Positions 4,080-54,955 of a stretch of 64,000 nucleotides of DNA are shown piece by piece. The DNA comes from Escherichia coli (GTDB lineage: Bacteria; Pseudomonadota; Gammaproteobacteria; Enterobacterales; Enterobacteriaceae), in NCBI RefSeq assembly GCF_013122565.1, contig NZ_CP053258.1, one strand, 5' to 3'. How positions within the stretch are numbered: position 1 is the stretch's first letter; each line of letters starts with the position of its first letter. The translations under genes and the position numbers were made by a program. Under the pieces are notes generated by a model. The model was not told the DNA's origin, did no database searches, and worked only from the letters and a program-made list of their open reading frames with translations.

Positions 4080-4155
4080 TGGCTCCTCTGACTGGACTCG
4101 AACCAGTGACATACGGATTAACAGTCCGCCGTTCTACCGACTGAACTACAGAGGA
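4080..4155 (-). tRNA. asnT: tRNA-Asn (GUU)
   Basis: Reverse complement of 4080..4155 is a 76-nt tRNA-Asn sequence ending in CCA, matching the recalled E. coli tRNA-Asn. Confidence 0.93.
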
Positions 4156-4255: not shown

Positions 4256-5053
4256 TTAATGAACATTCGTCGCCGAAAACGAGTCTGTATCATTAGCGTG
4301 ATGCAGTCTCTGCAAAGGATCTTGTTGATAAAATTGGCAGAAACGTTGCCACAATGAAGGGAAACGAGGAGCAAAAAGTTCTGGGGCGCTAAAGAAATAT
4401 TCAGAAAGTACGGCAAAACATTCAGCAGGATCACTGGCAGCATAAGCATCAATGCTCGCCGCATTCTCGCCAACCAATTCGATTTCTTCCTGAATGTTGT
4501 TCATTGCAGCATGAAGATCGTGTTCCCAGCCAGCAACCTCACGCAACGGAATAAAGGGAACTCCGCTGGCGCGATCGCCGTTACGGGTGTCCAGCTTATG
4601 AGCGACTTCATGAATAATCAGGTTAAAACCAGAAGCATCAAAAGAATCTTGTATATCCAACCAGTTCAAAACGATAGGCCCTTGCTGCCAGCTCTGACCT
4701 GACTGAACAATACGTTGGTTATGCACCAGACCGATATCGTCTTCCCATTCATCATCGACCACAAATGGCGCAGGATAAATTAAGACTTCATGAAAACCAT
4801 CCAGCCATTCCAGTCCTAACTCCAGAACGGGTAGGGAAAATAGAAGTGCTATCCGGCAGCTTCTTAATGAATCCAGTTCAAAGCCCTGTAAAGGAACAAG
4901 CCGCTTTTGCTGTAAAAAACGTTCGGCAAGAGTGACTAATTTGCTTTGTTCCTGTTCCGTCAGACACGTTAAAAGGGGGATCGATAGTGCTTCCTGCCAG
5001 GGAAGGGCAGTTTGATGTGCTGATTCTTGTACTTTCCAGGGCCACTTAATCAT
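4256..5053 (-). CDS. mtfA: Mlc titration factor A (265 aa)
   Basis: ORF 4256..5092 (-) contains [14 protein letters not shown]...; start set at internal ATG 5053 to give the recalled 265-aa protein. Confidence 0.88.
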
Positions 5054-5146
5054 CGTTTTGCTCGCAAACTCGTCACTTGAACAAAATTGCACGGACAGGG
5101 ACTGTTAAAATGCCAAATTTCCTGGCATCATGGCAACCATCTGAAC

Positions 5147-5236
5147 GGAGAGATGCCGGAGCGGCTGAACGGACCGGTCTCGAAAACCGGAGTAGGGGCA
5201 ACTCTACCGGGGGTTCAAATCCCCCTCTCTCCGCCA
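5147..5236 (+). tRNA. serU: tRNA-Ser (CGA)
   Basis: 90-nt sequence GGAGAGATGCCGGAGCGGCTGAACGGACCGGTCTCGAAAACCGG...TCTCCGCCA read directly; long variable arm, CCA end. Confidence 0.93.
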
Positions 5237-5805
5237 CTTTATCAATGACTTATCTCCCGACTTCCCGCCTTGCTTTTCCTAAACAGAACAATCGTAGAAT
5301 ATTCTTGAAGGGTTAGATCGTCACTGTTTTCTGTTCGATACTGTGACATTCAGCACTTGATTCGCTATGGATCTGACAGGAAGGTTTCGAGCGAAAATGT
5401 GCAGTTATTCAGTCGTTTTCTTATCGCTCACCATTCTTCTTTTAGACATTCATCCTATGAAACTGCCGCAAAGTTGGTGGTGGGAACTGAAGTTGCGTAG
5501 AGAAGGGGTCAATAATTGAGCCAAAAAAGGAACGCGGCCGTCAGATTAAAGCCGCGGGACAAAGTCCATAATTTCCAAGAGTTGTTGAATTTCCCAGCTT
5601 TTTTGAAAGCCTTTGTATCATACTAACAAGTAAAAAAGGTTTAAATACCAAAATTAACCTGTATTTTTGATAAGTCTTACCATTGTACGATTTACACAGT
5701 TTCTGCTCCTCCTTGTTGATAGTGGAAAGAGTGCATTATGCACTTGCGTAAACATTTATGATGCGTTGATGTCCAGGGTTCACATTTCCTTGTCAGGGGA
5801 TCGAC

Positions 5806-6336
5806 TTATTTGCGGCGAGGCATCATTCGTAACAGAGTATTATCTTTCTGAATGTAGTGATGAAAGAGTGCTGCGCCAGCGTGAGCTGCGATTAAAAAGT
5901 AACCTATATTTGCCCAGGTTTCGTGAATATTTTTTATCAGTGCTTTAATTTCGCTGTTTGGGGTAACAAAGGGAGACACATTGAAACCAAGGAAACTCCA
6001 CGATTTTCCACTGTAAGCCATTAAAGCAATCCCCAGCAGAGGAAGCGCAAGGAAGGTTATATAAAGCATGATGTGCATTAGCGAAGCCGCTTTCATTTGC
6101 CAGGCAGGTGGCGGTGGCACAATAGAAGGATCACTATAACGGTGTTTTATAATCAGGCGTGAAAACATTAACACCCAAACGAATATACCCGCATTGTAAT
6201 GTGTTTCTCGCATCAGCAGATAAGTATTACTACCTTTAGGAAACCAGCCACGGAGTTCCATCGCGGCATAGGTTATTGCAACGAAAAGCAGCGTTATCCA
6301 ATGTAAATAAATTTGAGTTTTTGAGAATCGGTTCAT
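5806..6336 (-). CDS. yodB: Cytochrome b561 family membrane protein YodB (176 aa)
   Basis: ORF 5806..6366 (-) contains MNRFSKTQIYLHWITLLFV...; start set at ATG 6336. Confidence 0.85.
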   Translation of the reverse strand: MNRFSKTQIYLHWITLLFVAITYAAMELRGWFPKGSNTYLLMRETHYNAGIFVWVLMFSRLIIKHRYSDPSIVPPPPAWQMKAASLMHIMLYITFLALPLLGIALMAYSGKSWSFLGFNVSPFVTPNSEIKALIKNIHETWANIGYFLIAAHAGAALFHHYIQKDNTLLRMMPRRK

Positions 6337-6678
6337 TTTTGTAGCTCCTGTAATTTTCACAGTCAAGCTATCCCACGAACCTTAAAAATTCCTTATACAG
6401 ATGTGGTTTTAAGAATTTGTTATTTAAAAAATTGATAGTGCACATTGTAACCAGCCAATATAAGCAATGGCGAGAGCACAGGTATCTAACTCTGTTGGCC
6501 GTATTGTGTATGGAATCCGTTATTGGTTAACTCAATGCGGGTTAGCTTATTAATATACAGACACGTCATAGTGATGAGCGTGTCTGTAGCTAGCTTGCGT
6601 TCAGTGGCGTTTATGGATGCACCAGTGGCAGTTATGATGACTTACTAAAGCGGCATCGAGACGTTATCATGAGAATAC

Positions 6679-7329
6679 TCAATGAGACATCATTTCCTCG
6701 ACCACTTCTTCGCTACTCAACTGATATGGATAATACGTTGGCCAGTTTTCCATTTCATTCAATAAAGATTGCTGTGAATCATTACCCATAAAAATGTGAA
6801 AATGAGATGATTTTCGTGGTGCAATTATATGATCGCTAAATTGTATATATTTAGGGGCTTTGCTTTTAGGATCTTTACATTCGAATAAGTAACGAACGCC
6901 TTTCTTGCCTGATTTATAGGTGAGTATTTTGTATCCATCGTAATCATATTTACAGGATGTTGTTTCATTATTTCTATGGAATTCAACAATGCCGTCCTCA
7001 ATGCCAATCATCTCGATATCTGTCGCATAACCTTTGTGATAATAATCTTTAATTTCAGCAAATATTTTAGTTTTATCTGCATCCGCTTTTTTCTGAAAGA
7101 CGGGGTCAAGTTTGCCACTTTGCAGTAAAGGATAAACGGATTGCCAGACTCCATCCCAGTCACTTAGCGTTCGGTTTTTTACATTGGCATCATCAAAAAC
7201 ACCATTAGCAGCTTTTTGTTCGATCTCTGTTAAAGGTTTACCGTGTGAGTGATGACCATGCGAAAAGGCAGGAGCGCTAACAATAAAGACACCTAAAGCA
7301 ATAGCCAGTTTATGAAGACGAATCGCCAA
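6679..7329 (-). CDS. zinT: Periplasmic zinc/cadmium-binding protein ZinT
   Basis: 216-aa ORF with HGHHSHGK motif; first codon is TTG, preceded by GGAGGA at about 9 nt. Confidence 0.88.
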
Positions 7330-54653: not shown

Positions 54654-54729
<76 letters not shown>

Positions 54730-54782
54730 GTTTAAAAGACATCGGCGTCAGCGGATGTCTGGCTGAAAGGCCTGAAGAATTT

Positions 54783-54856
54783 GGCGCGTTAACAAAGCGG
54801 TTATGTAGCGGATTGCAAATCCGTCTAGTCCGGTTCGACTCCGGAACGCGCCTCCA
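54783..54856 (+). tRNA. cysT: tRNA-Cys (GCA)
   Basis: 74-nt GGCGCGTTAACAAAGCGGTTATGTAGCGGATTGCAAATCCGTCTAGTCCGGTTCGACTCCGGAACGCGCCTCCA. Confidence 0.93.
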
Positions 54857-54868
54857 CTTTCTTCCCGA

Positions 54869-54955
54869 GCCCGGATGGTGGAATCGGTAGACACAAGGGA
54901 TTTAAAATCCCTCGGCGTTCGCGCTGTGCGGGTTCAAGTCCCGCTCCGGGTACCA
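54869..54955 (+). tRNA. leuZ: tRNA-Leu (UAA)
   Basis: 87-nt GCCCGGATGGTGGAATCGGTAGACACAAGGGATTTAAAATCCCTCGGCGTTCGCGCTGTGCGGGTTCAAGTCCCGCTCCGGGTACCA. Confidence 0.93.

Follow-up and report, generated by a model that had tools for sequence, protein, structure and literature searches.

The serU–yodB intergenic region of Escherichia coli: an empty tRNA attachment site, a yodB breakpoint and a minus-strand RNA 3' end in a nearly invariant block

Genes and features of the locus

The window analysed here is a stretch of 64,000 nucleotides of Escherichia coli DNA. In this window, the tRNA gene serU is followed on its 3' side by a gap of 569 nt (positions 5237-5805), which extends to the stop codon of yodB (5806, minus strand, in the list of open reading frames). 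The gene mtfA lies between asnT and serU, and yodB, a cytochrome b561 homologue, lies beyond the gap together with zinT. The window presents the K-12 order as its reverse complement, and a K-12 coordinate is obtained as 2048704 minus the window coordinate. The gap is identical in length to K-12 2042899-2043467, which is flanked in K-12 by the end of yodB (2042898) and by serU (2043468-2043557). The GC content of the gap is low (36-45%). The gap is a composite of three layers, i.e. a left part (5237-5521), a block (5522-5645) and the flank of a yodB-containing segment (5684-5805). The features of the locus are summarized in Table 1.

Table 1. Coordinates (window positions), strand and supporting evidence for the features at the serU locus
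Feature	Position	Strand	Evidence or remarks
asnT	4080-4155	-	ARAGORN
serU, tRNA-Ser(CGA), intact, CCA encoded	5147-5236	+	ARAGORN; Rfam tRNA (57 bits); K-12 serU b1975
attB identity segment for lambdoid and ST64B-family integrases, anticodon stem to tRNA 3' end	5175-5236	+	prophage attR, phage attP matches, breakpoints
14-bp direct-repeat segment of the tcpC/hfp 'serU island'	5223-5236	+	island attR from 5223, attL ending at 5236
Left part of conserved core, variable, non-coding	5237-5521		alignable with E. albertii; 14-37 variable sites in 285 bp among nine alleles
50-codon ORF, spurious, hydrophobic, not conserved	5367-5519	+	allele comparison
Nearly invariant block, candidate small transcription unit (promoter-like site, RNA of about 88 nt, terminator)	5522-5645	-	conservation
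Intrinsic terminator: stem 5556-5550/5539-5533, 10-nt loop, then UUCCUUUUUU ending at 5523	5523-5556	-	custom scan, fold, Term-seq, CLASH
Sigma-70-like promoter motif TTTAAA-17-TATGAT (-35, 5645-5640; -10, 5622-5617)	5617-5645	-	consensus scan
Right edge of shared core	5646-5683		strong divergence between yodB-carrying and yodB-less alleles; 8 variable sites in 38 bp
yodB segment, 995 bp, CDS plus flanks	5684-6678	-	blastn of window against MB49; alignment; terminator scan
3' flank of yodB segment, 122 bp, part of the yodB 3'UTR	5684-5805	-	missing from yodB-less genomes
yodB CDS	5806-6336	-	comparison with K-12 and PGAP genomes
zinT	6679-7329	-	beyond yodB

The K-12 genome record (NC_000913.3) holds no annotation within the gap. 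Among 60 sampled genomes annotated with PGAP, no gene was called under the first 447 bp of the gap (5237-5683, termed the core below), with the exception of a terminase call in one rearranged strain. A search of the serU region against Rfam (E<=1) returned just two tRNAs plus sub-threshold matches; of the latter, a match to sX4 (25.6 bits; gathering score, 70) and a match to a plastid 3'UTR both overlap the tRNA and were treated as tRNA-driven noise. Open reading frames within the gap reach 50 aa at most, one frame of 93 aa runs antisense into yodB, and none of the gap frames matched a Pfam or NCBIfam family at E<=1. The preliminary description of an ORF-poor spacer of about 570 bp after serU is thus borne out.

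It had also been suggested that the spacer may hold an unannotated small gene. This suggestion fails for a protein-coding gene, as the 50-codon ORF is disrupted in some alleles and takes substitutions freely in others, and it gains support for an RNA: on the opposite strand, the nearly invariant block has a promoter-like site, a functional terminator and the 3' end of an RNA that associates with Hfq. A small membrane protein, encoded either by the 50-codon ORF or by one of the ORFs of 26-36 aa in the block, is extremely unlikely. The 50-codon ORF does begin with ATG, encodes a hydrophobic stretch and remains intact across most alleles, and 36-aa ORFs are found on both strands of the block; however, nearly all substitutions between alleles of the 50-codon ORF change the amino acid, strain CUVET21-PYO5 carries a premature stop, strain 167 has lost the start codon and is frameshifted by a 13-bp insertion, and E. 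albertii has no counterpart frame. The ORFs of the block, in turn, have their start codons inside the promoter motif or ahead of it and, as read from the sequence, have no clear ribosome-binding site; moreover, K-12 is unannotated here despite the dedicated small-protein surveys that are reflected in NC_000913.3.

serU as an attachment site and the origin of its flank

Transfer-RNA genes are frequent targets of integrases, and serU is a textbook integration hotspot. A query spanning 4900-6100 was recovered whole and in one piece in 2,323 of the 5,426 complete E. coli genomes in our collection, which is biased towards clinical isolates, so that these and all following percentages are not population frequencies. 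The shorter query across the tRNA 3' junction (5100-5340) was uninterrupted in 3,855 of the 5,426 genomes and interrupted in 1,567 of 5,422 (approximately 29%). In the interrupted genomes that were sampled, the breaks lie at 5166-5176, or the matches end at 5236 or 5252.

Several integrated elements account for such breaks. In the O145:H28 strain 12E115, a lambdoid prophage has a complete serU on one side and, on the other, a partial copy beginning at the equivalent of 5175 (attR); the integrase gene of this prophage is frameshifted and ends 27 bp from the complete serU, and the cargo comprises nleB2, nleC, nleH and nleF. In strain CUVET21-PYO5, an island of 22.5 kb, with the 14-bp repeat at its two ends, contains tcpC and a homologue of hns. 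Both types of occupant are known, the 'serU island' of B2 strains having been described already (PMC5521745, PMC7074111) and serU being a known prophage locus in O145:H28 (PMC7067040). The island PAI-CFT073-serU (tcpC, hfp, hnsT) and the lambdoid prophages of STEC/EPEC strains use the same tRNA gene and flank; the attB that they target is intact in the window. Integrase genes of the serU type, or C-terminal stubs of such genes, were also found directly after serU in several Citrobacter species, in Pseudescherichia vulneris and in S. enterica arizonae.

The same target is used by phages of other enterobacteria: Salmonella phage ST64B, Citrobacter phage Chris1 and the Klebsiella phages KpF5 and P7641 integrate into tRNA-Ser with an attP that corresponds to 5175 up to the end of the tRNA, and the attP regions of ST64B, Chris1 and KpF5 match serU from 5175. 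The integrases of this group share 55-59% identity with the one encoded by the E. coli O145 serU prophage. Past the tRNA end, the attP regions of this group retain a loose similarity for approximately 16 bases, and the int-proximal arms are otherwise unlike the E. coli spacer.

In the window, serU is intact and matches, in its 3' portion, the attP of these phages and the attL and attR of prophages, and in other genomes the site is occupied by integrase-bearing elements flanked by partial tRNA repeats; the serU of the window is an unoccupied attachment site, in the K-12-like state. In contrast to the genomes with a serU island or a lambdoid prophage, the window has no integrase, no repeat and no cargo at this site, in line with the earlier statement that no island is present. 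Likewise, no direct repeat of the tRNA 3' end had been visible, and a search with the last 14-25 nt of serU, allowing 1-3 mismatches, found no second copy within the 64-kb window. The general expectation that the 3' end of this tRNA gene serves as an island site also holds, with about 29% of the complete E. coli genomes carrying an element at serU; a comparison with other E. coli strains had been proposed as the check, with a lack of occupancy in every strain as the outcome that would speak against it, and occupancy is what was seen.

The asnT site is likewise unoccupied in the window, with neither an integrase of the HPI nor ybt genes. Strains MB49, A7 and LR-64-2 carry an integrase beside asnT, followed in MB49 by ybt (HPI) genes. 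To the left of asnT, a long yeeJ-like frame on the minus strand apparently runs off the left end of the window.

A part of the serU flank is also carried by phages. The genomes of the lambdoid phages ev099, mEp332 and PhiR70_1 contain window positions 5175-5514 at 97% identity, located between a tail-fibre assembly gene and a gene for an AraC-type regulator, at a distance of approximately 2.1 kb from the gene for the integrase. Immediately before this copy lies DNA that resembles the P arm of serU prophages. In the phage copy, a P arm is thus followed by 62 nt of tRNA sequence and then by 278 bp from the host flank, and this arrangement is fused to DNA with the AraC-type regulator and IS remnants. 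The fused junction was found in 537 of the 5,426 E. coli genomes, and phage and prophage copies include L087 3939-4278, L086 3941-4278 and L096 approximately 6870-7130; in strain 2824, the copy lies beside yagP'/paoD and not at serU.

Specialised transducing phages of the lambda gal/bio type take up host DNA next to their attachment site by aberrant excision. The order of P arm, core and 278 bp of bacterial flank in the phage copy is that of such a phage, with an arbitrary end (here, 5514), and on the basis of this order the copy is the fossil of an attR together with host DNA that was captured, as would arise from an aberrant excision. Unlike in lambda gal/bio phages, the captured piece is just 278 bp long, and it has become fixed in a widespread prophage lineage (the 537 genomes) with a different integrase and at other loci. 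This second, phage-borne copy of the tRNA end and the first 278 bp of the flank, in approximately 10% of the genomes, can mislead the calling of attachment sites and of island boundaries.

The preliminary description had considered that the spacer could be a remnant, and a decayed island or prophage at serU, of which the spacer would be a leftover attL arm, would explain why its first 278 bp are common to phages. The phage copy itself, the integrase remnants immediately downstream of serU in Citrobacter species and S. enterica arizonae, and the low GC content of the gap are all in agreement with such an origin. However, the integrase of ev099 is lambda Int, just 25% identical to serU-type integrases, and the phage segment is embedded at a distance from it, amid tail-fibre/moron DNA and after a P arm of the serU-prophage type. 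The attL arms of true serU elements part from the spacer immediately after 5236, and the gap itself holds neither similarity to an integrase nor a tRNA repeat: tblastn of five integrases of the relevant families against the gap and sensitive blastn against attL arms both returned noise only. Furthermore, the core is near-universal, covered to at least 80% in 5,342 of the 5,426 E. coli genomes (98%) at 96-100% identity and constant length. The E. albertii sequence aligns over 5237-5520 and 5634-5683 at approximately 80% identity with small indels, against 97% for the phage copy, a difference that points to a recent transfer from host to phage. An island would be expected to be patchy in its distribution; the core is not, and patchiness was seen just for the yodB segment (5684-6678). 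A remnant origin is largely refuted by these findings and we regard it as very improbable.

The presence of the core in 98% of the E. coli genomes, together with its alignment with E. albertii, indicates instead that it is probably vertically inherited intergenic DNA of Escherichia and not an island scar. Its left part tolerates disruption, given that an IS66-family element (ISCro1) is inserted at approximately 5304 in the spacer of strain A1, beside a prophage with nle effectors (L095 approximately 4300-7000).

In Escherichia sp. E1V33, E. whittamii and a divergent genome designated 'E. coli' (L008, L009 and L010), the genes shiA-amn-yeeO-cbl follow serU directly, approximately 300-350 bp downstream. 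The asnT-mtfA-serU block thus has the opposite orientation to that in E. coli and E. albertii, so that synteny breaks in the 3' flank of serU and the cryptic Escherichia clades cannot be used as outgroups for this region.

The yodB segment

The right-hand 122 bp of the gap belong to a yodB presence/absence polymorphism that had been missed in the preliminary description. In yodB-less genomes (MB49, LR-64-2, A7, CUVET21-PYO5 and ATCC 25922), the sequence is homologous to the window up to 5683 and again from the zinT stop codon (6679), and the 995 bp in between are replaced by 222 unrelated bp (L001 6785-7006). The hairpin of the zinT terminator (6559-6586) is the sole part that the two alleles have in common. 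A query across the yodB junction was complete in 3,106 of the 5,426 genomes (57%), and yodB is absent in approximately 43%. No direct or inverted repeats were found flanking the segment, and hence no signature of transposition.

The E. albertii locus has no yodB as searched by tblastn, and its zinT-proximal spacer is similar in length to the yodB-less allele and aligns loosely with it. From these two observations we infer that yodB was gained, the 995-bp segment having replaced 222 bp in the lineage that leads to the 57% or so of sequenced genomes with the gene. The left breakpoint of this dimorphism (approximately 57:43) lies inside the gap, which is relevant wherever the locus is used as 'backbone' in island typing.

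The invariant block and its minus-strand RNA 3' end

The middle layer of the gap is far more conserved than its surroundings. The block is at least 99% identical in 5,365 of 5,417 genomes; over the whole core, this level is reached in just 2,127 of 5,423 genomes (39%). Among nine E. coli alleles, one variable site was found in the 124 bp of the block, compared with 22 in the 323 bp of its flanks, or 45 when strain 167 is included (Fisher's exact test, p = 0.007, and p = 6e-6 with strain 167). The left edge of the block, 5522, is adjacent to a mapped RNA 3' end at 5523 and the right edge, 5645, is the start of the -35 hexamer of the promoter motif. The block is equally invariant in yodB-less genomes.

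The blood isolate strain 167 has a very divergent allele (L092 1501-1960), with 91% identity over the core and the 13-bp insertion located after 5440. Both flanks of the block differ in this strain, yet 5517-5683 are identical to the window; this mosaic is consistent with constraint on the block, or with recombination around it.

Conservation above that of the neighbouring non-coding DNA, as is looked for in an sRNA gene, was found within E. coli only. The E. albertii alignment lacks 5522-5633, and the conservation of the block is accordingly shallow. An 8-bp direct repeat, AAAAAAGG, is present at 5524-5531 and 5633-5640 and flanks the 112 bp that are missing in E. albertii; the 112-bp segment has no terminal inverted repeats. 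The repeat fits a microhomology-mediated deletion in E. albertii and an insertion with duplication in E. coli equally well.

On the minus strand, the block ends in an intrinsic terminator (dG of -11.6 kcal/mol), which was the sole strong candidate on either strand of 5200-5900 in a custom scan that allowed loops of up to 12 nt; a standard scan with the loop capped at 8 nt missed it. No terminator was found on the plus strand of 5237-5805.

Published transcriptome tables hold RNA ends at this position. A Term-seq 3' end of the 'orphan' class at K-12 2043181(+) corresponds to window 5523(-), exactly where the U-run ends (Adams et al. 2021, PMC7815308, supplementary file 1); of the three condition lists, two contain it (scores, 2241 and 1864) and the first does not. 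These scores are low, approximately 2000 where DsrA reaches approximately 10^6, and long 3'UTRs are among the ends classed as orphan (PMC7815308). In Hfq CLASH data, the fragment int-1073-1 spans 2043157-2043181(+) and forms a chimera with mreC (Iosub et al. 2020, PMC7213987), which provides a lead to a possible target of the RNA. In RIL-seq data, an entry 'yodB.serU.IGR', tabulated without strand or coordinates, has 39 chimeric fragments with one partner in exponential phase and 33 with two partners in stationary phase (Bar et al. 2021, PMC8175672). In every case this entry occupies the second position of the chimera, and its scores in the authors' sRNA classifier, 0.010 and 0.046, are under their cut-off of 0.1 (PMC8175672). 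The Term-seq and CLASH tables show that the minus-strand terminator works in vivo and that the RNA 3' end which it yields at 5523 is bound by Hfq. In strains that carry yodB, this terminator ends the yodB transcript, with a 3'UTR of 283 nt.

As minor results, the main text of a RIL-seq paper on EPEC does not mention the locus, and the fold of the whole predicted RNA is no more stable than that of shuffled sequences (z = -0.92). As the exponential-phase RIL-seq partner, ompF was deduced from matching table values; its predicted duplex with the RNA body (-24.7 kcal/mol) was no better than those of 39 of 40 shuffles, and no claim is made for this candidate.

In our view the block could well be a gene that is specific to E. 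coli and older than the arrival of yodB and that encodes, under a sigma-70 promoter of its own, an independent, Hfq-binding sRNA of about 88 nt, although we advance this reading tentatively. It is suggested by the promoter-like site at the far edge of the block, with a predicted start near 5610, and by the equal conservation of the block in yodB-less strains, in which zinT has a separate terminator. The zinT gene has a strong terminator of its own in both allele types, located approximately 260 nt upstream of the block in yodB-less genomes, so that these strains do not need the block terminator for zinT. The RNA's own promoter, as well as any regulatory function, is putative: the motif is the sole such site in 5000-6000, with one found against 1.4 expected by chance in 1 kb, and the supplements of the Cappable-seq and SMRT-Cappable-seq studies have no start-site entry for this interval.

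Somewhat more doubtful, yet to be taken seriously, is that the block represents merely the intrinsic terminator of yodB and the end of its 3'UTR, where Hfq would bind the U-tail as it does at many mRNA terminators, with no promoter and no role in trans. The position of the 3' end 283 nt downstream of the yodB stop codon with no other strong terminator in between, the inclusion of long 3'UTRs in the orphan Term-seq class, the low abundance of the RNA with its few partners and a classifier score under the cut-off, and the chance-level occurrence of the promoter motif would all be accounted for in this way. It accounts less readily for the invariance of the block in the yodB-less 43% of genomes, in which a separate terminator serves zinT, for the approximately 90 nt upstream of the hairpin being as invariant as the hairpin, and for conservation that stops exactly at the -35 hexamer. 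The invariance could also reflect a recent sweep or a constraint at the DNA level and not RNA function; to such constraint or hitch-hiking we assign the probability that is left after the sRNA and the 3'UTR readings.

If the block is an independent sRNA gene, this gene would predate the insertion of yodB, and yodB, once inserted, would now be using the terminator of the block. The left part of the gap (5237-5521) is non-coding DNA that evolves freely beside an att core contained within the tRNA. Overall, an empty, vertically inherited flank of composite structure, with a minus-strand terminator and an Hfq-bound 3' end, is probably the best explanation of the gap. The finding is real but ordinary; what adds to it are the unannotated RNA end in the invariant block, the breakpoint of the yodB dimorphism and the copy of the flank that phages have captured.

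Hfq-binding sRNAs that end in an intrinsic terminator, such as CpxQ, SdhX and MicL, are either intergenic or derived from 3'UTRs. The candidate RNA shares with them the GC-rich hairpin followed by a U-tail, a 3' end in vivo, the recovery on Hfq and the position as second partner in RIL-seq chimeras. In contrast to these sRNAs, it is of very low abundance, below the classifier cut-off and restricted to E. coli, and its start and targets are putative. The gap is thus not featureless, but contains an unannotated, experimentally supported RNA 3' end within the most conserved 124 bp of the locus, and the block is a cheaply testable sRNA candidate in the best-studied bacterium. Should the sRNA reading be true, a gene would exist that is unannotated in K-12 while its 3' end is already present in Term-seq and CLASH tables and RNA of the gap in those of RIL-seq.

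A tRNA trailer is another known source of Hfq-associated RNA, and the sRNA sponge 3'ETS-leuZ resembles the candidate in being an RNA next to a tRNA gene and on Hfq. The candidate RNA, however, is on the strand opposite to the tRNA and converges with it, and no plus-strand terminator follows serU. A 3' external transcribed spacer of serU was rejected as the source of the gap RNA, given that there is no plus-strand terminator and that the mapped end is on the other strand. The glyW-cysT-leuZ tRNA operon is itself present in the window (54654-54955; leuZ, 54869-54955), and its leuZ trailer is presumably the known 3'ETS-leuZ sponge RNA. In the RIL-seq table that holds the serU gap entry, 3'ETS-leuZ is listed as leuZ.yecA.IGR (PMC8175672).
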